Shown here one piece after another: positions 2,035-9,713 of a stretch of DNA of 9,713 nt; position 1 is the stretch's first letter, and each line of letters starts with the position of its first letter. This DNA comes from a virus. Its lineage: Duplodnaviria; Heunggongvirae; Uroviricota; Caudoviricetes. Where the stretch lies: positions 1-9,713 of IMG/VR virus record IMGVR_UViG_2737471860_000011; one strand, written 5' to 3'. The notes beneath the pieces are model-generated. The model saw only the letters and a program-made list of their open reading frames with translations, ran no database searches and was not told the DNA's origin. The position numbers and the translations under genes were made by a program.

Positions 2035-3090
2035 TTAACCAATTTTGACGGTAACAAATTTGCGAATATCTGCCGGAACCGGCTGCGGTGCGCTGTGTGT
2101 CTGCACGTACTCAATCGCCGGATCGCCGTCCTCAATCCAGTTTTTCGGGTAGTACATGTTTTGCGTTGCGCCCGTTCTTACAGCTTCCTGATCCATAATC
2201 GCACCATAGGCCACCAGACCTTTGTTGTTGGTGTTGCCCAGGACCAGTAAATCAGGCTCAAGGAAATATTTTTCGGTGCCGTCGCTGTCAGTGTATTTGC
2301 CGGAATAGACGATAAGGGCAATATCGCCCAGATAGCCTTTAAAGCTCACCACTTCGCCCAGGTTTTTACAGGCCAGTTCTGCGGCGGATTCTGAACCACG
2401 GGAAAGATCGTACAGTTCGCGGAATTTTTTAAAGCTGCGTAACGTTCGCCATACCTCAGCGCCCATAATCATGACGTTGGCGGGGCAACCTGCTTGATCT
2501 GCGTATAGTTCGATATCATAGATTGGATCATGGGTTTCTTTGTCCTGCTCTGACCATTTACGGCCTTTGGCCTGCTCTATGATGTTTTTTTCCGGTATCT
2601 TCCAGTCGATTTCATAGCGTTCTATGCCTTCGCCCTCAATGATGTTTTTTCCGGTCGTTACCGCATTCACCGCCAGCCATTCCACGCGTGCCTTAATGGC
2701 GTTTATCTGGCGGCGCATGTTGCCAGTAATCAGGCGCATACGTCGGTAGGTAGGATCGTTAAGCTGTGCCGGATCTTCTCCAGCCATGCGCATGATGGTT
2801 TTTGTTGGATCGATTTCGTGCTTTGGCTTCATGTAGCCAGGTTTAATCGTGCTGGTTTCGTACCCTTTATCGCGCTGTACCTGGCTACCCACCATAGGCG
2901 AACAAAACGCAGACATGGTAACTTCTTCGGTATCCAGGTTATCCAGCATGATGTTTTGCGTGTTGAATGTCGCTACTTTCGGGAAAAACAGCGACGTAAA
3001 CAGTGGACTGAATTTAAATTCCGAAATATCCCCGCGATTCAGGTATCTGAAAAGCTGGTTAGTGTTAAGTGCCGTTGCTTTGCCTGTCAT
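2035..3090 (-). CDS. Major capsid protein, lambda gpE family (351 aa)
   Basis: KFSPLFTSLFFP, KPGYMKPKHEIDP, DPTYRRMRLITGNMRRQ and C-terminal YPKNWIEDGDPA match lambda gpE (KFDPLFLRLFFR, TPGYVKPKHEVNP, DPAYRRRRIIMQNMRDE, YPKNWVTTGDPA). Strong GGAGGTG Shine-Dalgarno 4 nt before ATG at 3090. Confidence 0.9.
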   Translation of the reverse strand: MTGKATALNTNQLFRYLNRGDISEFKFSPLFTSLFFPKVATFNTQNIMLDNLDTEEVTMSAFCSPMVGSQVQRDKGYETSTIKPGYMKPKHEIDPTKTIMRMAGEDPAQLNDPTYRRMRLITGNMRRQINAIKARVEWLAVNAVTTGKNIIEGEGIERYEIDWKIPEKNIIEQAKGRKWSEQDKETHDPIYDIELYADQAGCPANVMIMGAEVWRTLRSFKKFRELYDLSRGSESAAELACKNLGEVVSFKGYLGDIALIVYSGKYTDSDGTEKYFLEPDLLVLGNTNNKGLVAYGAIMDQEAVRTGATQNMYYPKNWIEDGDPAIEYVQTHSAPQPVPADIRKFVTVKIG

Positions 3091-3296
3091 TATTCACCTC
3101 CATGAGTCTGATTCATGCCCAGCGCCGCACGTAAATAGGCGCGTACCTGCCAGCCTGTTGACGGCTCAACCATCGCCAGCGGCTCAAGTCCTGCCGCAAT
3201 GCCTGCTTTTACGTTCTGCTGGTGGCGTTCCTTGAGCGCCTCCACGATGTCTGGGCTTATGTAAACTGTCACCCCGCCTTTTTTCTCTTCTGCCAT
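3090..3296 (-). CDS. Hypothetical small protein (68 aa) translationally coupled to the major capsid gene
   Basis: ATG at 3296 with AGAGGA Shine-Dalgarno about 10 nt upstream; its TAA stop overlaps the capsid ATG (TAATG). The track ORF begins at a GTG (3329) inside the promoter palindrome, which is less likely. Function unknown. Confidence 0.45.
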   Translation of the reverse strand: MAEEKKGGVTVYISPDIVEALKERHQQNVKAGIAAGLEPLAMVEPSTGWQVRAYLRAALGMNQTHGGE

Positions 3297-3324
3297 AGTC
3301 GGAAATTCCTCTTTGACGTTAAAA

Positions 3325-3380
3325 ATCACAACTGGATGTTCATCCAGTTGTGATTATAATCATGATTTCATTTTACGCAA
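3325..3380 (-). promoter_or_regulatory. Candidate sigma70 promoter of the capsid module overlapped by a 30-bp perfect palindrome operator
   Basis: Minus strand: -35 TTGCGT (3380-3375), 16-bp spacer, -10 TATAAT (3358-3353). Palindrome ATCACAACTGGATG-tt-CATCCAGTTGTGAT (3325-3354) abuts the -10 and covers the predicted start site; its core is CTG-N10-CAG. Confidence 0.5.
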
Positions 3381-3465
3381 TAATGTTTGGTTGTGTTGCA
3401 AATTGTGAAATGATTTGCGGCAACAGTAGTCACCATACTGTTAGATAAAAGCCTCATATGCAAAA

Positions 3466-3502
3466 GCCCGATAAGACCCTCTGACCTTATCGGGCTTTTT
3501 TT
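3466..3502 (+). terminator. Strong rho-independent terminator (bidirectional potential) between SSB and capsid modules
   Basis: GCCCGATAAG / CTTATCGGGC 10-bp stem with 10-nt loop followed by TTTTTTT on the plus strand; preceded by AAAA, giving a 4-U tail on the minus strand. Confidence 0.65.
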
Positions 3503-3509
3503 GGGGCAT

Positions 3510-3531
3510 AAAAAAGCCGAACTTCTCCGGC
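3510..3531 (-). terminator. Rho-independent terminator after the SSB gene
   Basis: Minus strand GCCGGAGAAGTTCGGC (imperfect stem) followed by TTTTTT. About 20 of 22 nt identical to the terminator at 1233-1254. Confidence 0.5.
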
Positions 3532-3547
3532 TTCTGTTACTCATTGC

Positions 3548-3970
3548 TTAAAACGGTATGTTATCCCCGTACGGATCATCGTTACCCGCCTGTTGTTTTG
3601 CCCTGTTCAGTGCGTCAGTAGCCTGGCCCTGTTGACCTTTTTTGCCGCCCAGTCGCGCCGTTCGCGCACTGATTACACTGTCTGCGATAACCTGCCAGCC
3701 CTGCCGCGTTTCTCCGTTCTGCCCAGTCCACTGGCTGATCTGCATGTTACCCGCCACGCTCAGGAGTTCACCCTTGCGGTGCCTTTCCAGTGCTTCGGCC
3801 TGTCTGCCAAATGCCAGGACGGATAACCACATCGTCGCCGTTCCGTCATCTGCCTGGCTGCACGGAAGGGGGACCGCCATACGCGCCAGCGTCATCGGTG
3901 TGCCCTTGCTGGTGGTCTTTAACTGCTGGTCAGCCACCAGCCGCCCGTAAGCCGCTATCTGTGCTGTCAT
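3548..3970 (-). CDS. ssb: Single-stranded DNA-binding protein (SSB) homolog (140 aa)
   Basis: OB-fold signature WLSVLAFGRQAEALERHRKGE...QWTGQNGETRQGWQV parallels E. coli SSB [21 protein letters not shown]...KWTDQSGQDRYTTEV. Gly/Gln-rich linker and C-terminal tail ending DNIPF (E. coli SSB ends DDDIPF). ATG at 3970. Confidence 0.8.
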   Translation of the reverse strand: MTAQIAAYGRLVADQQLKTTSKGTPMTLARMAVPLPCSQADDGTATMWLSVLAFGRQAEALERHRKGELLSVAGNMQISQWTGQNGETRQGWQVIADSVISARTARLGGKKGQQGQATDALNRAKQQAGNDDPYGDNIPF

Positions 3971-4033
3971 GCTGTCTGTTCTCCGGTTTTAACGTTGATA
4001 GTTACGCTTGTTTACACCCTTACGGTGAAATTC

Positions 4034-4158
4034 TGCGGGTTATAATCGCACTTTTGCGGGTTATAACTGCCATTTTGCGGGTTACGTGCGGGTTATTGAT
4101 TTCCTTTTTATTCATACAGTTAATTCACTTATACACAGGATAACCCGCATAACCCGCA
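4034..4158. repeat. Iteron array, putative replication origin
   Basis: Direct repeats of TGCGGGTTAT/C at 4034-4043, 4055-4064, 4076-4085 (21-bp phasing) and 4087-4096; AT-rich spacer 4097-4139; two inverted copies ATAACCCGCA at 4140-4149 and 4149-4158. Immediately 3' of the primase-helicase gene. Confidence 0.7.
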
Positions 4159-4181
4159 ACTTTTCACCTCACACAGGGTAG

Positions 4182-6305
4182 TTAATCTTCTGCCTCAGGC
4201 TGGAACATCATCACGTAAAAAACATGCTGCTTACCCCCAATTTTGCCGAGCGCCTTTTTCTTGTAACGGCGATCGTTACCCGCTTCCAGCATTCCGGCAG
4301 CACTCAACGCGCGGGCAAAGTGAGACGGATTAAATCCCTGTGCTATCTCACCCTCAAACACATGAGGAAACGTGTAAAAACGGAACTCATCATCTTCATT
4401 TCTGATACTCCCCTTTCTGTATCCGGCAAGGTCTTTAATCGGTAAATCACGCTCATCACTGTTTGGGTAAGGAAGGTATCGACTGAACCCGAACGACGAC
4501 AAAAACGCCTCAGCCTGTTCAACCATCTGTTTAAATTCCCTGTTACCCGTGCCGAACTCCTTCACCCAGGCATTAAAGTTATGCTGTATTGCGTCCCGGC
4601 ATTCCTGCGCGGCCCAGCCAGTTACATGACCGGAAAGCACAAGCGCAGCCTCCAGTATGGCGAAACGCTCCCCCACGCGGTGGACCTGCTCGCCGTAGCT
4701 ATCCGGTATCAGGTTGCGCCACCGTTCGCGGCATTCCCTTACCGTATCCTTTGCCTCCTGCTGGTGGTCTGCCAGCCATTTAACCCATTCACGACCCGCC
4801 GCCCCGTGATTTTCTGTCCAGGCATCTTTTAACGCGTCTGCGTGCGCCTTTCCGGTGCTGTATTCGTGAAATTGCGTGGCTTTTTCCATCGGAACGTTAA
4901 GCAGGCGGACAAGCTGCCCCGCTTTGACTTTTATCCCCTCCGTTTTGAGGAATGTCTCAACGTCCATTTCTCCGGTGCTGATTGCCACCGTGCGCCAGTG
5001 TTTTATCTCCCGGTTGCCGCCGTCCTTCGCCCCCTGTAATTTCCCGGAGCCGTTAAACAACGTATAGGCTGACGTGGACACCTCCCGCGCGTTTCCGGCC
5101 TGACCTATTTCATCCAGGGGTAACAGCCCGTCGTTGTGTGCCTCTGCCTCGTTGGCGATACCTAACGCCGTTCCGTACCAAGTAAGCCGTTGTGCGTCCG
5201 GCTCTCCCCATAAACTTGATGCGATGTTCTGCGTGGTGGTTTTCCCTGCCGATGACTGTTCGAAAAGATGTACCCCGAAGCCGTCAGCACCAACAAGGCC
5301 AATCAAAGGTGCTGCCAGTGACGTGGCAACACCCAGCATCATGGACGGATTGCCACCAGCCAGCCGCGCCACGCTGTCACGCCAGCCCTCCGCCGTACCC
5401 GCAACCGAATAGCCATTAACAGCGGCACTTTTTCCGGTAAACAGGATCGGTTTTTCAGAATCACCAATGATTGAACCGTCCGGCATGATGTACGCGCCAA
5501 AATGCCAGCCCGTTGTTGTGCTTAACTGCCATTCCTCATGGCTTCCGCTTAACTGCATCCAGTCAGCCAGGATAGCCCTGTATTTGCCGTTTGTTGTCAC
5601 ATTCAGCCCGTGATCTTTAAGCAACCGCCAGCCGTCACGGTCGCCAATGCCACCACACGGGATCGCCATTGTGATGACTTCATGGTTTGCTAATTTTTTC
5701 CAGCGCATCACGCGGTAATGCTCTTTACCGATCGTCCCCGTTCCCAGTAGTTCAAGCGGAGAACATAACCACGTCTCAGGCCGGATAATTTCGCCTGACT
5801 GCTTATCCACTTTGGGCGTTACCCAGAAAACACCATCGACGCGACTTTCAACGCGGGGCTTTAATTCATCATCCTGATAGCATGGCTCTTTTTTCTTTAC
5901 AGGCAGTTCAACTACCTTTTTCTTTTCCGCCAGCTCTCCCCGCTCACGCTCCAGATATTCGCGCCAGTTCTCCCGTTTCTGGCTGTGCATTCCTTCAGGG
6001 TAATAATCAGCATCCCTGACACCTGCCGCTGCCAGTTTCTGCCCGATGGTATTAACAAGCCCCGGACGCAATAACCCCGCCTGATAGAGACGCACGCGAT
6101 AGCGTCCGTCCGGTACGATTTGCAGGTTGTCCAGTTCGACAAGTTGTTGCTCTCCAAGCCAGACAGGTGGCACGTTATCGCCAGCCAGTCGCCCGTCCTG
6201 TTCCTGCCACTGTTTCGCATGTGCCCACGCATCACTACCCGCAAAAATGATGACTTCCGTCATTTTGTCACGCGGCTGGTGTTTTAAATTTGGCGCTTTT
6301 TTCAT
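4182..6305 (-). CDS. Replication initiator, fused primase-helicase (P4 alpha-like / DUF927-type, Pri-Rep), about 707 aa
   Basis: Large ORF with a P-loop-like motif (FEQSSAGKTT); position downstream of AlpA and directly upstream of the iteron array. Preferred start is the ATG at 6305 with GGAGAG Shine-Dalgarno, rather than the upstream GTG at 6320. ATG overlaps the stop of the preceding ORF (ATGA). Family assignment is from overall resemblance and context, not a domain search. Confidence 0.8.
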   Translation of the reverse strand: MKKAPNLKHQPRDKMTEVIIFAGSDAWAHAKQWQEQDGRLAGDNVPPVWLGEQQLVELDNLQIVPDGRYRVRLYQAGLLRPGLVNTIGQKLAAAGVRDADYYPEGMHSQKRENWREYLERERGELAEKKKVVELPVKKKEPCYQDDELKPRVESRVDGVFWVTPKVDKQSGEIIRPETWLCSPLELLGTGTIGKEHYRVMRWKKLANHEVITMAIPCGGIGDRDGWRLLKDHGLNVTTNGKYRAILADWMQLSGSHEEWQLSTTTGWHFGAYIMPDGSIIGDSEKPILFTGKSAAVNGYSVAGTAEGWRDSVARLAGGNPSMMLGVATSLAAPLIGLVGADGFGVHLFEQSSAGKTTTQNIASSLWGEPDAQRLTWYGTALGIANEAEAHNDGLLPLDEIGQAGNAREVSTSAYTLFNGSGKLQGAKDGGNREIKHWRTVAISTGEMDVETFLKTEGIKVKAGQLVRLLNVPMEKATQFHEYSTGKAHADALKDAWTENHGAAGREWVKWLADHQQEAKDTVRECRERWRNLIPDSYGEQVHRVGERFAILEAALVLSGHVTGWAAQECRDAIQHNFNAWVKEFGTGNREFKQMVEQAEAFLSSFGFSRYLPYPNSDERDLPIKDLAGYRKGSIRNEDDEFRFYTFPHVFEGEIAQGFNPSHFARALSAAGMLEAGNDRRYKKKALGKIGGKQHVFYVMMFQPEAED

Positions 6306-6601
6306 TTCTGCTCTCTCCACGCGGCAATCATGTTTTTCAGTTCCTGTAGTTTTTTATCCACATCCACACGTGACACATGGTTATTTCTGGAAGTCGGGAT
6401 TTCCCGCCGGAATCTACAAATAAAGATCTCCACGTTCAGCGAACTAAGAAATGAATAGCCATCACGGATAAAATACACACGGTCAAACATCAGTTCTTTT
6501 ACCGTTACTCTGTTACCGTTCTTATCCAGATAAATAGCGCCGGGGATAATTTTGGGGTGTGCATAACCGCTGGCAGTCAAGCCAGATAAATACGTTCTCA
6601 T
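6302..6601 (-). CDS. Hypothetical protein (99 aa), translationally coupled to primase-helicase
   Basis: ATG at 6601 with GGGGA Shine-Dalgarno; TGA stop overlaps the primase ATG. About 38% GC in a sampled 100-bp stretch, lower than the primase gene. No family recognised. Confidence 0.55.
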   Translation of the reverse strand: MRTYLSGLTASGYAHPKIIPGAIYLDKNGNRVTVKELMFDRVYFIRDGYSFLSSLNVEIFICRFRREIPTSRNNHVSRVDVDKKLQELKNMIAAWREQK

Positions 6602-6607
6602 GATTAC

Positions 6608-6928
6608 TTATCCCCGATTTGAATCAGTATTCGCTTTCTTTATGGCATTTAACGCATCTGTGGCATTTTCAATGGTGCACCGTAACGAAATATCAAACTG
6701 CCCAAGCATTGTCAGTAACAAACCGATATTCCCCATGTCAATGCGCATAGCCTTTTCGTCATATTCCTTATTTTCTGACGCATACCACATCAGGCTACCA
6801 ATTGACGCAACAGCCATTGATATATTGTCAGTAGCCGCATCCGCAGCAGAATAAACCTTTTTAGCAATATCATGCTCACAGTTAAAATGCGGATTAATCA
6901 GGTACTGGTAATTTGACATATCAGGCAT
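6608..6928 (-). CDS. Hypothetical protein (106 aa)
   Basis: ATG at 6928 with GGGGG Shine-Dalgarno; 6-nt gap to the next gene. Low-GC like its neighbour. No family recognised. Confidence 0.55.
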   Translation of the reverse strand: MPDMSNYQYLINPHFNCEHDIAKKVYSAADAATDNISMAVASIGSLMWYASENKEYDEKAMRIDMGNIGLLLTMLGQFDISLRCTIENATDALNAIKKANTDSNRG

Positions 6929-7124
6929 GGCACACCCCCTGACGAATACGGGCAGCGAATACCATCACGCAGCCAGCCGGGGATTGCTGGCGTGCTTCCT
7001 GTTCGCTGCTGGCCTCAATGGTAATCACGCGCGGTTGTGCCGTACTCAGGGCGATAAAACGCCAGATGTATTTATTCAGGTTGTGCGAGTCCAGCCCTTG
7101 CGGGTGTGTGGTATGATTTCTCAT
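6921..7124 (-). CDS. Hypothetical small protein (67 aa), first gene of the replication operon
   Basis: ATG at 7124 with GAGGT Shine-Dalgarno 5 nt upstream; 8-nt overlap with the next gene start. The track ORF 6921..7862 (313 aa) is rejected as one CDS; only the 3' 68 codons have a ribosome-binding site and sit downstream of the promoter. Confidence 0.4.
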   Translation of the reverse strand: MRNHTTHPQGLDSHNLNKYIWRFIALSTAQPRVITIEASSEQEARQQSPAGCVMVFAARIRQGVCHA

Positions 7125-7222
7125 AGCTACCTCGATACTCTTGCTATCGTTGGTGGTTAGACGCCCTGCATGTGTTGCGAGCACTGCGGGGCGTTGCTTA
7201 ATTTGAGTGACAAAACTCAAAC

Positions 7223-7302
7223 TGTGCGCACAGATTAAAATCATGTGTGCGCACATGTCAATACTTAACATCTCATTTTTTTTGCTGTATTGTGTGCGCC
7301 CA
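7223..7302. promoter_or_regulatory. Divergent promoter region with three operator palindromes (TGTGCGCACA)
   Basis: Perfect 10-bp palindrome at 7223-7232 and 7246-7255; one-mismatch copy TGTGCGCCCA at 7293-7302. Minus-strand promoter: -35 TTGACA (7261-7256), 16-bp spacer containing O2, -10 TTTAAT (7239-7234), with O1 at about +1. Plus-strand promoter: -35 TTAACA (7265-7270), 17 bp, -10 TATTGT (7288-7293), with O3 over -10/+1. Confidence 0.6.
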
Positions 7303-7329
7303 TAAAGTCCATTTAAGTGAGGTGCATCA

Positions 7330-7527
7330 ATGTCTAGCGGTAACACAAACAACAAATCAGCAAAGAAAAATATTCGATTCCCACATGAGCTTATAGATGG
7401 GATTGATGCCAGCGTTGAACAAGAAAAATTAACTAATCCTAGTGCTAATTTTTCCGCATGGGTCTTAGATGCCTGTGGACGCAAATTAAAATATGAACAG
7501 CGCCGGAAGGCCAAAGAATCAGAATAA
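7330..7527 (+). CDS. Arc/Mnt-like ribbon-helix-helix transcriptional regulator (65 aa), candidate repressor of the replication operon
   Basis: NIRFPHELIDGIDASVEQE...NFSAWVLDACGRKL parallels P22 Arc NLRWPREVLDLVRKVAEENGRSVNSEIYQRVMESF (beta-strand then two helices). GAGGTG Shine-Dalgarno 6 nt before ATG; divergent from the operon across the operator palindromes. Confidence 0.65.
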   Translation: MSSGNTNNKSAKKNIRFPHELIDGIDASVEQEKLTNPSANFSAWVLDACGRKLKYEQRRKAKESE

Positions 7528-7584
7528 TCACTATCAGCGCCGTGGTGTGAGTAACTACGGCGCATTGCTATGCAGGACAACACA

Positions 7585-7758
7585 ATGACCGATAAAGAAT
7601 TGACCAAAACATTATCACCGGCACGGAAAAGACGGCGCAGAAAGATAGAGCATGAATCAGAAAGATTCGCACCTTGTTCGTTTGCTCTTGAGAAATTCCT
7701 TAAAGAGCACAGGAAAAAGCTCTCGTTGCAAACCTTGGGACGAACCAAATCTGACTGA
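7585..7758 (+). CDS. Hypothetical small arginine-rich protein (57 aa from ATG 7585; track ORF starts at 7570)
   Basis: AGGA about 8 nt before ATG 7585; contains ARKRRRRK. Sits between the RHH gene and a plus-strand terminator. Weak support overall. Confidence 0.3.
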   Translation: MTDKELTKTLSPARKRRRRKIEHESERFAPCSFALEKFLKEHRKKLSLQTLGRTKSD

Positions 7759-7825
7759 TCACATTGCCCACCAGCCGCAAATGTGGCATTGTTGGTGATG
7801 CGTTCAAGTTTAGTGTGTATCCATT

Positions 7826-7851
7826 GGCGACCGCCCCCGGTCGCCTTTGTT
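7826..7851 (+). terminator. Rho-independent terminator of the plus-strand regulatory transcript
   Basis: GGCGACC gccccc GGTCGCC hairpin followed by TTTGTTATATAT on the plus strand; no U-tract on the minus strand. Confidence 0.6.
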
Positions 7852-7872
7852 ATATATGTCATATGCTCCCCT

Positions 7873-8082
7873 TTACGCTGCCTTACCTGAATTAATGCGA
7901 TCCCGGCTTTTAACCCATTCCATAACCTCGGACAGCAGCCAACCTACAGAACGCCCACCAAGATTACGGCGAGACGGAAAGCTCCCTTTTTTCTCCAGTT
8001 CGTAGCGTGTAGTGCGACACACTCCAGTTAACTTACGACATTCATCCTCACGGATTACGCGATCTTCATTTATTTCACGCAT
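7873..8082 (-). CDS. alpA: AlpA / P4 Vis-family transcriptional regulator (69 aa; track ORF extends to a GTG at 8169)
   Basis: ECRKLTGVCRTTRYELEKKGSFPSRRNLGGRSVGWLLSEVMEWV matches the AlpA pattern (HTH, then KxGxFP...LGGRSV.W...E...W). ATG at 8082 with AGGT Shine-Dalgarno; adjacent to and co-directional with the integrase. Confidence 0.8.
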   Translation of the reverse strand: MREINEDRVIREDECRKLTGVCRTTRYELEKKGSFPSRRNLGGRSVGWLLSEVMEWVKSRDRINSGKAA

Positions 8083-8474
8083 ACAAAAACCTACATAAAA
8101 ATTACGTATATAAACTTTTCTCTTAGCTGTAGATATATGAGATCGGATATTACTTAGATTCTTTTTCACCTCTTAAATTAAAAACACAACCATGCTAAAG
8201 GCTTTGTTCGCTAAGGTTCGTAGAAGCTCGTTAGTGTTTAAAATCGTGTCACGAGTTTTTAAGCGACGCAACAAAAAAATGTCTTCATTTTGCATGACAC
8301 TTGAATTATCTCATTAAAAACAAATAGATAAACCATCAAGTGTTGGAACAATCAAGAAACAGAGAATAAAAACCCAGAAGACGACATTCCAATTAAGATA
8401 TTTGCAGATATTTTCCGATATTCTACGATTTATTCACGGCTGTAATCTCTTAAAGAAAAAACAGCCGTAATTTG

Positions 8475-9713
8475 TCAATAATTTTGGGTGTAAATTCGCG
8501 GGGTCATAACAACGATTTTTTCATCATTGTTCTGGAGAAGCTCGAGACGGTCTACCCATAGATTAAGAGCGTCACGCTTTGCATCGAGATAACGGGAGTG
8601 GTTATAGACGCGTTGCATTCCTGGCATCTGGTGGGCAGTAAGCTGTTCGACAATATGCGGATCCACGCCTAAATCGTTCAGCATGGTTGTAAATGTGTGC
8701 CGGATGTCGTGCAACGACCAGGGGGCTTGATTAATGCGTCTGTGTGCCGTTCTTCCGTACTCTGCTACGGATGATTGCCCTTTCAGTTCTCCAAGCAATA
8801 AGCCCGTGTGCCTGTTCTGCTCCACCAGCTTCATGACGAACGGCAAGATCGCTTCCGGTATTGGCCTGAATATTGCTACCTTCGTTTTGCTGTGTTCTTT
8901 CGGCACAGTCCAGAGCATTTCTTTAAAATCCCATTCCCGAACCTCGGAGCGTCTTAGCTCAGTGGTACGGCATCCGAAGACAATCAGAAGGCGAATTAAA
9001 GCGCTGTAGTACGGCGGGAAAATTTTTTCATCCAGTGCGCGGAGTAGCTCGCCAAGCTCCTTGTTTGTTAGCACTCGCTCGCTTATTTCTGCTTTTTTTC
9101 CCACATCACCTACGACCATATCATCAAGAACGTTACTGACGGCGTAGCGACGTTTACGGCAGTACTTAAGCGCCTGTTTGCATACCTGCAACAAAAAGCC
9201 GGCTGATACCGGATTACGCTTAGCAAGCTGGTCAAAACAGGCCAGCCAGTGGCGTAGCTCGCATTTATCCAGCGGCATAGCACCAATCTGGCTGATTATG
9301 TGCTTATTGATACGGCTTTTCAGTGATTCGTGGTCAGTGCGCTTTTCCTTCGCATACGACTCAAGCCAGTAAGTGAGCGCGTCCTTAACCGTCACGGGGG
9401 CTAACGCTTCCTGCACTGTGTGATTAAGCTCATGGCGTGGATTTTTCCCCTCCGCCAGCCAGGCGCGACACTGTGCCGCTTTTTCCCTGGCTGCTTTCAG
9501 GCTCAGATCGGGATAGTTGCCCAGTCTCAGGCGTTCCGGTGATACCTGCCTGCCAGTTCCGGCCCTGTAAGTGAAATACCAGGTTAACAGGCCGCTAGTG
9601 GAATGTCTTACGCTAAGATTGCCACCGTCATTAAAAAAGGCGTTTTTTGTGGTTGGTGATCCGCTTAATTTTCGTAAAAGAGTGTCGCTAAGTCTATGAA
9701 TTGCGCTGCTCAT
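8475..9713 (-). CDS. int: Site-specific tyrosine recombinase, P4-type integrase (412 aa; start codon is the last 3 nt of the window, possibly 5'-incomplete)
   Basis: N-terminal LSDT...DGGNLSV...YFTYR...LGNYPDLSLKAAR parallels the CP4-57 IntA N-domain. C-terminal catalytic signature HDIRHTF (H-x-x-R) and VYNHSRY (tyrosine nucleophile). Confidence 0.9.
   Translation of the reverse strand: MSSAIHRLSDTLLRKLSGSPTTKNAFFNDGGNLSVRHSTSGLLTWYFTYRAGTGRQVSPERLRLGNYPDLSLKAAREKAAQCRAWLAEGKNPRHELNHTVQEALAPVTVKDALTYWLESYAKEKRTDHESLKSRINKHIISQIGAMPLDKCELRHWLACFDQLAKRNPVSAGFLLQVCKQALKYCRKRRYAVSNVLDDMVVGDVGKKAEISERVLTNKELGELLRALDEKIFPPYYSALIRLLIVFGCRTTELRRSEVREWDFKEMLWTVPKEHSKTKVAIFRPIPEAILPFVMKLVEQNRHTGLLLGELKGQSSVAEYGRTAHRRINQAPWSLHDIRHTFTTMLNDLGVDPHIVEQLTAHQMPGMQRVYNHSRYLDAKRDALNLWVDRLELLQNNDEKIVVMTPRIYTQNY

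Follow-up and report, generated by a model that had tools for sequence, protein, structure and literature searches.

Gram-negative PICIs possess a replication category of genes that includes primase, SSB and DUF5906 (PMC10111431). In published PICI origins, an AT-rich region lies between two sets of iterons, and the rep-ori segment of the E. coli island EcCICFT073 is able, without ssb, to replicate a plasmid in E. coli (PMC6092414). Within this island, the capsid gene has been identified as c1499 and the decoration gene as c1500 (PMC6092414), and RppA (c1503; 144 aa) has been found to retarget the TerS of the helper to the cos site of the PICI (PMC6739421). The gene-by-gene screen of EcCICFT073 for interference with lambda was performed with plasmids carrying the genes from c1499 onward, with ssb lying outside the screened region, and deletion of rppA alone brought lambda plaque titres back nearly to island-free levels (PMC6739421).

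In the CFT073 genome, EcCICFT073 occupies positions 1377930–1388654, with roxA and phoQ on either side. Its genes are arranged in the order int, HTH, Icd-like, DUF4222, primase, (ori), 85-aa ORF, SSB and PerC, followed by a small ORF, the capsid and decoration genes, and three further ORFs. The SSB of this island (accession no. WP_000126698.1; NC_004431.1, position 1384538–1384948) is the closest described counterpart of the protein considered here.

Neither ssb nor “single-strand” is mentioned in two papers on cf-PICIs or in those on Gram-negative PICIs, Rpp, EcCIMP1, SatelliteFinder and synthetic PICIs, and a literature search for experiments on a PICI SSB found none. The annotation of ssb is already known, the family is very common and ordinary, and its recognition in the sequence adds nothing to the annotation.

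The SSB of the F plasmid complements ssb-1. The SSBs of F-type plasmids, HK620, Pseudomonas F116 and Staphylococcus phages are likewise host-type SSBs with a C-terminal tip carried by mobile elements. The SSBs of conjugative plasmids and phages are considered to supplement or replace the host SSB (PMC8406263, PMC5928155).

The whole stretch of DNA analyzed here (9713 nt; hereafter the window) contains an ssb gene of this satellite type. The results described below point, with a probability of about 0.7, to a functional bacterial-type SSB, the gene of which closes the replication module of an EcCICFT073-type PICI, and which would support replication of the island.

The island containing the ssb gene

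The window has the gene layout of Gram-negative PICIs (cf. PMC6092414), with a tyrosine integrase gene (int; 8475–9713, its start codon forming the window end), alpA (7873–8169), a replicase gene and an origin-like region with two sets of iterons, all on the minus strand. A gene encoding a DUF4222 protein is also present (6302–6601, minus strand). The hijack module of such islands is represented by homologs of RppA, capsid E and decoration D: a lambda gpE-like capsid protein (2035–3090), a gpD-like decoration protein (1688–2023) and a 146-aa HTH/TerS-like protein resembling RppA (659–1099), all encoded on the minus strand. The N-terminal HTH of the last of these corresponds to PHROG 57 (“terminase small subunit”). 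One small ORF lies between ssb and the capsid gene, and two ORFs, including 659–1099, are located after the decoration gene.

Comparison with EcCICFT073 revealed 95.7% and 97.3% identity for capsid E and decoration D, respectively. The product of 659–1099 is 98.6% identical to a 144-aa EcCICFT073 protein with the same position and size as RppA, and the integrase and SSB are 78% and 69% identical to their counterparts. Since the identity within the module amounts to 95.7–98.6% and that of SSB and integrase to 69–78%, the window is, as judged from its gene content, an EcCICFT073-type E. coli PICI with a different replicase cassette (DUF927 in the window versus primase/DUF5906 in EcCICFT073). The view that the ssb gene is satellite-borne, put forward in the preliminary description of this DNA, agrees with these identities.

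Examination of ORFs, Pfam and PHROG matches identified no tail, lysis, portal, terL or other structural genes in the window. A capsid-forming PICI (cf-PICI) was considered and rejected because portal, protease, terL and head-tail (adaptor/connector) genes are absent from the window; an HK97-type capsid, HNH and terS are also absent. No match was obtained for the whole window with Rfam at the gathering threshold, including C4/isrK-type RNAs, and no tRNA was found. PADLOC analysis of SSB and its neighbors gave weak HTH noise only and no match to a defence system.

A 313-aa minus-strand ORF at 6921–7862 is probably spurious. In related islands, this region is occupied by short Icd-like genes (minus strand) and genes of the YlcI/YnfO family (plus strand), and the window contains plus-strand ORFs inside it, at 7330–7527 and 7570–7758.

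At 3324–3355, two 15-nt arms form a perfect inverted repeat, with 2 nt separating them; in the minus-strand transcript this repeat would fold into a 14-bp hairpin ahead of a U5 tract. The repeat is placed between a sigma-70-like site (3409–3380) and the RBS/start (3296–3329) of the small ORF heading the capsid E/decoration D/RppA module. This hairpin could be a terminator/attenuator or an operator controlling the hijack module.

The SSB and its C-terminal tail

The ssb gene is an uninterrupted minus-strand ORF (3548–3970; ATG at 3970, TAA at 3548–3550), encoding a 140-aa protein with the N-terminus MTAQIAAYGRL and the C-terminus NDDPYGDNIPF. By direct reading of the sequence, a Shine-Dalgarno motif (GGAG; 3981–3984, minus strand) was recognized 10 nt upstream of the start codon. 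The protein matches Pfam SSB (PF00436; residues 5–99; bit score 51.8, cut-off 26; E = 9e-14) and PHROG 44 (“single strand DNA binding protein”; E = 4e-36), and it marginally passes NCBIfam TIGR00621 (55.4 against a cut-off of 53.95). A sequence search of the PDB yielded 26 distinct SSB matches, the top one being Thermotoga maritima 1z9f (E = 7.5e-10).

In the AlphaFold2 model, which is a monomer built on 42 homologs, residues 1–103 (3662–3970, minus strand) are predicted to form an OB-fold ssDNA-binding domain consisting of a beta-barrel and one helix (pLDDT 85–94). The best 50 of the 191 Foldseek matches in the PDB (E ≤ 0.001) were bacterial SSBs throughout, with TM-scores to target of 0.65–0.82 for the OB domain. 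A non-SSB OB-fold family was rejected, as sequence, profile and fold searches all gave bacterial SSB. PriB (a dimer of ~104 aa without linker or tip) was also rejected: the island protein has 140 aa, a 37-aa tail and an IPF tip, and its named matches are all SSBs, none of them PriB. That 3548–3970 encodes a full OB-fold SSB had been proposed earlier, and the exact ORF, the three profiles and the AlphaFold2/Foldseek results bear this out; profile, PDB and Foldseek results, in which a non-SSB OB-fold family might have appeared, were all SSB. Homology and modelling thereby confirm the predicted product as a bacterial-type SSB.

The best sequence and fold matches are short bacterial SSBs, i.e. T. 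maritima 1z9f, S. aureus SsbA/SsbB (5xgt/5yyu) and B. subtilis SsbA (6bhw), which have a similar domain length, a TM-score to target of about 0.8 and 25–27% identity. In contrast to the island SSB, these proteins belong to other phyla, in which they serve housekeeping or competence, and are not carried by mobile elements. With E. coli SSB (b4059) the protein has in common the OB fold and a disordered linker. It also has counterparts of W54, F60 and W88, and both proteins end in a D-x-D-x-IPF tip in which position −7 is aromatic. However, the two are only 34% identical over 68 residues (BLASTP, 46–112), and they differ in size (140 aa with a 37-aa tail versus 178 aa with a 66-aa tail).

Multiple alignment placed W48, F54 and W81 of the island SSB opposite E. 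coli W54, F60 and W88. Of the four aromatics that stack on ssDNA in the E. coli protein, three are thus kept, W48 and F54 being invariant across the family. The fourth, W40, has no counterpart because the L23 loop is shorter in the island SSB. His55 of the E. coli tetramer interface is replaced by Leu49.

Residues 104–140 are disordered in the AlphaFold2 model (pLDDT below 50), with a low-confidence helix at 117–127. The linker (residues 104–129; 3584–3661, minus strand; pLDDT < 50) contains the cassette GQATDALNRAKQQ. It had previously been called Gly/Gln-rich, which holds only weakly: the linker is short, and there are 6 Gly and 5 Gln in the 37-aa tail, a modest enrichment compared with the 17 Gly and 11 Gln of the 66-aa E. 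coli tail, which also has 10 Pro and is thus far richer in all three residues.

The cassette GQATDALNRAKQQ was present in 100 of the 120 close homologs versus only 6 of the 150 cluster representatives (50% identity). Among relatives sharing the window cassette, the dN/dS of the linker is 0.07–0.12. The mean column majority is 0.95 for the cassette and 0.88 for the OB domain, a comparison biased by the choice of sequences according to the cassette motif. The window cassette is no less conserved than the OB domain, which is unusual for an SSB linker, and it could constitute a second interaction surface. Linker cassettes are exchangeable: the window contains KKGQQGQATDALNRAKQQ, EcCICFT073 (L015) has NRRKTTGTQGNQPPAGG instead, and some islands (L018) carry both in tandem.

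The acidic/hydrophobic C-terminal tip is NDDPYGDNIPF (residues 130–140; 3551–3583, minus strand). In the family alignment, D136 and F140 never vary, and I138 and P139 are nearly invariant. An ending of the type [ILVA]-[PS]-F was found in 114 of the 120 homologs and D-x-IPF in 107, and the DNIPF tip described earlier is indeed the terminus of the protein (PYGDNIPF). With its aromatic residue at −7, Asp at −5 and terminal I-P-F, the tip follows the Y/F-x-D-x-I-P-F pattern of E. coli DFDDDIPF. Position −4 varies (N, D, G, E or S), whereas the host SSB has D, so that the island ending is DNIPF and that of E. coli DDIPF. Many family representatives at 30–50% identity retain PFDDxIPF-like tips. The EcCICFT073 SSB shares with the window SSB the N-terminus, the OB domain and a DDPYGD-x-IPF tip.

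Competition with host or helper SSB interactions had been named as an alternative in the preliminary description. The tail bears on this idea that the island SSB acts in interference, titrating SSB clients or forming mixed tetramers and thereby handicapping the helper or the host for the benefit of the island. The tip is conserved yet less acidic than that of the host (N, G, D, E or S at −4), the conserved linker cassette could supply the second interaction surface, and the post-ori regions of PICIs usually carry interference genes (PMC6739421). However, the low identity to the host SSB (34% over 68 residues) and the loss of His55 make mixed tetramers unlikely. Moreover, since deletion of rppA alone nearly restores lambda titres (in an island whose screen began at c1499, without ssb), little interference seems to be left for other genes, and no defence-system profile was matched by PADLOC. 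Interference is therefore regarded as an unlikely role.

At 59% GC, the ssb coding sequence is richer than the window as a whole and the capsid gene (49% each) and than the ori (43%), suggesting a different origin of the gene or a strong compositional constraint. In comparisons with 13 homologs (NG86), dN/dS was 0.09–0.25 overall and 0.12–0.26 for the OB domain; these values show that purifying selection acts on the gene. Two substitutions distinguish the window allele: P15Q, in a D-P motif that hardly varies in the family, and P107L, at a Pro that is likewise almost invariant. Both NCBI and UniRef list the identical 140-aa protein under the name “single-stranded DNA-binding protein [Escherichia coli]”, and this exact allele recurs on 12 public contigs. 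Decay of ssb, suspected from P15Q and P107L, was not supported, given the intact ORF and the repeated occurrence of the allele on these contigs.

A hitch-hiking remnant with no present function would fit the two changes at near-invariant prolines and the sufficiency of the rep-ori segment for replication of the prototype island (PMC6092414). It is extremely improbable in view of the dN/dS values of all 13 comparisons, a tail that is intact in 114 of the 120 homologs, and the fixed position of ssb across islands with differing replicases and cargo.

Origin, replicase and transcription unit

The replicase is a 712-aa DUF927 primase-helicase (4182–6320, minus strand; Pfam DUF927, E = 8e-48), which also matches PHROG 1139 (“DNA primase”; E = 7e-180). 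It is separated from ssb by a gap of 211 bp (3971–4181), inside which lies an iteron-containing, AT-rich, origin-like region (4034–4158) with six clustered copies of TGCGGGTTAT. Four of these are direct iterons (4034–4096; spacing 21, 21 and 11 nt) and two are inverted (4140–4158), the two sets being separated by a 43-nt AT-rich spacer (4097–4139; 72% AT). By chance, 0.66 matches to TGCGGGTTAT would be expected in the whole window, as against the six clustered at the candidate ori. The arrangement agrees with the PICI ori layout described in PMC6092414. The preliminary description had placed ssb downstream of the primase-helicase and ori, and these coordinates (4182–6320 and 4034–4158) are in line with it. 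In EcCICFT073, as in the window, ssb is located after the replicase and iteron ori and before the capsid E/decoration D/RppA module.

A scan of the coding strand for consensus promoters and terminators found none in the interval from replicase to ssb. Downstream of ssb, RNA folding predicted two hairpins. The first, at 3506–3535 (minus strand), resembles an intrinsic terminator (stem-loop 3535–3512 followed by U6) and begins 13 nt past the ssb stop codon. The second, at 3462–3499, resembles a bidirectional terminator, with a 17-bp RNA stem, a 14-nt perfect inverted repeat and T-runs on both strands. Both were missed by the consensus terminator scan because of its loop and stem limits. The 113-nt region 3′ of ssb has a folding z-score of −4.75 relative to shuffled sequences. 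Since no promoter or terminator precedes ssb and two hairpins directly follow it, the predicted replication unit ends with ssb, which is thus its last gene.

In related islands, a small ORF of about 85 aa usually overlaps the ssb start; the window keeps only its last 8 codons (4002–3979), and the Shine-Dalgarno motif of ssb sits within this remainder. Similarity to most related islands ends at about 4003, which marks a mosaic junction at approximately 3979–4003. The stop in similarity, together with the ORF remnant, indicates a recombination junction between ori and ssb in the window. EcCICFT073, unlike the window, has both the 85-aa ORF overlapping the ssb start and PerC after ssb. A PerC gene is often found 3′ of ssb in related islands.

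Family distribution and proposed role

Of 5426 complete E. coli genomes, 1819 gave a blastn match to the ssb coding sequence and so contain the family, some of them in as many as six copies; nearly all among the matches listed bear the PGAP label SSB. Roughly one in three of these genomes thus carries the satellite-type ssb. Ten loci were found in a single-protein genome scan, and related copies occur in islands of E. albertii, Leclercia, Citrobacter, Serratia and Scandinavium. Among 50,697 phage records, no SSB was more than 31% identical to the island SSB. Of the plasmid matches above 60% identity (PLSDB), at least two appear to be chromosome fragments filed as plasmids. The absence of a phage relative above 31% and the apparently chromosomal nature of some plasmid matches suggest that this ssb lineage is specific to PICIs/islands, as it seems from the databases searched.

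One of the plasmid records, CP088587.1 (L019; 32.5 kb), contains clcB, mlc, pntAB and a complete cf-PICI, and looks chromosomal. NZ_CP141089.1, a 4.9-Mb “plasmid” with a member of the ssb family, looks like a piece of a chromosome.

In every island examined, ssb was placed directly after the replicase and ori. The replicase itself belongs to one of several types: DUF927 (the window, L002 and L018), primase/DUF5906 (L001, EcCICFT073 and the cf-PICI L019), a RepA-type helicase (O157:H7, L016) or TOPRIM-DUF927 (L017). The identities of the two neighbors are uncoupled. In L001 the SSB is 92% identical to that of the window and the primase is different, and in L002 the replicase is 91% identical and the SSB 69%. 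The cargo following ssb also varies, from PerC, ProQ/FinO or an autotransporter to E/D capsid homologs or a full cf-PICI head module. In view of at least four replicase types, uncoupled identities, the ori/ssb junction and the varied cargo, ssb looks like a generic replication accessory, not a partner co-evolved with one replicase.

The mechanism that we propose for the functional, replication-supporting SSB is as follows. Upon induction of the island by a helper phage, transcription of the alpA/replicase operon would cross the iteron ori into ssb and end at the hairpins directly downstream, the replicase and ssb being presumably co-transcribed. The SSB, probably a homotetramer, would cover the single strands opened by the island primase-helicase at the origin and forks. 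Its Y-x-D-x-I-P-F tip may draw host SSB clients, such as the chi subunit of Pol III, PriA, RecQ/RecO and ExoI. The protein would thereby top up the host SSB pool during simultaneous replication of helper and satellite. ssDNA binding, oligomeric state and client recruitment are attributed to the island SSB here by analogy with known SSBs, and a benefit to island replication is likewise what we infer.

Given that the rep-ori segment works without ssb, this SSB would not be strictly needed for initiation when host SSB is available. The strong conservation of ssb despite the sufficiency of rep-ori implies a quantitative or conditional benefit, and probably a quantitative one. Possible benefits are the supply of SSB in helper/satellite co-replication, the recruitment of clients and contact with SSB-sensing defences.

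The packaged PICI DNA that enters a cell is double-stranded and not single-stranded. This route of entry, which offers no ssDNA stage, argues against a role like that of plasmid leading-region SSBs, namely shielding island ssDNA or concatemers from RecA loading or nucleases and so modulating the SOS response or recombination. Such protection would be compatible with the complete architecture of the island SSB in the predicted structure. It also has parallels elsewhere: plasmid SSBs built in this way suppress the SOS response that mating induces (PMC8406263), and phage SSBs cooperate with recombinases, e.g. HK620 Sak4 (PMC5928155). On the other hand, no recombinase or PsiB-like gene adjoins ssb in the window or in related islands, and ssb is always bound to the replicase-ori unit. 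This role is accordingly judged improbable.

Non-host SSBs trigger the defence systems Retron-Eco8, Hna, AbpAB and DARNA, and a satellite SSB produced only upon induction could therefore matter for abortive infection. The island SSB would then act as a trigger, so that helper infection is aborted, or as a decoy, by which defences are blunted. The response of several systems to non-host SSBs, the high divergence of the island protein from the host SSB and its occurrence in a third of E. coli genomes would suit such signalling, as purely contextual arguments. Nevertheless, it is very improbable: SSB and its neighbors gave no PADLOC match, no defence gene adjoins ssb, and the island SSB does not evidently mimic a phage trigger, as no phage SSB exceeds 31% identity. 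Improbable, too, is a specialized hub in place of a redundant copy, in which the conserved, possibly helical cassette GQATDALNRAKQQ and the less acidic tip would steer host SSB clients preferentially to the satellite, or in which an interaction with SSB-sensing immunity would influence abortion.

The backbone int-alpA-replicase-ori-ssb was also observed in other species and strains (e.g. L004, 10462–15256; L017; L018), where ssb is immediately followed by other cargo, such as ProQ/FinO- or PerC-family regulators or an AIDA/pertactin autotransporter.
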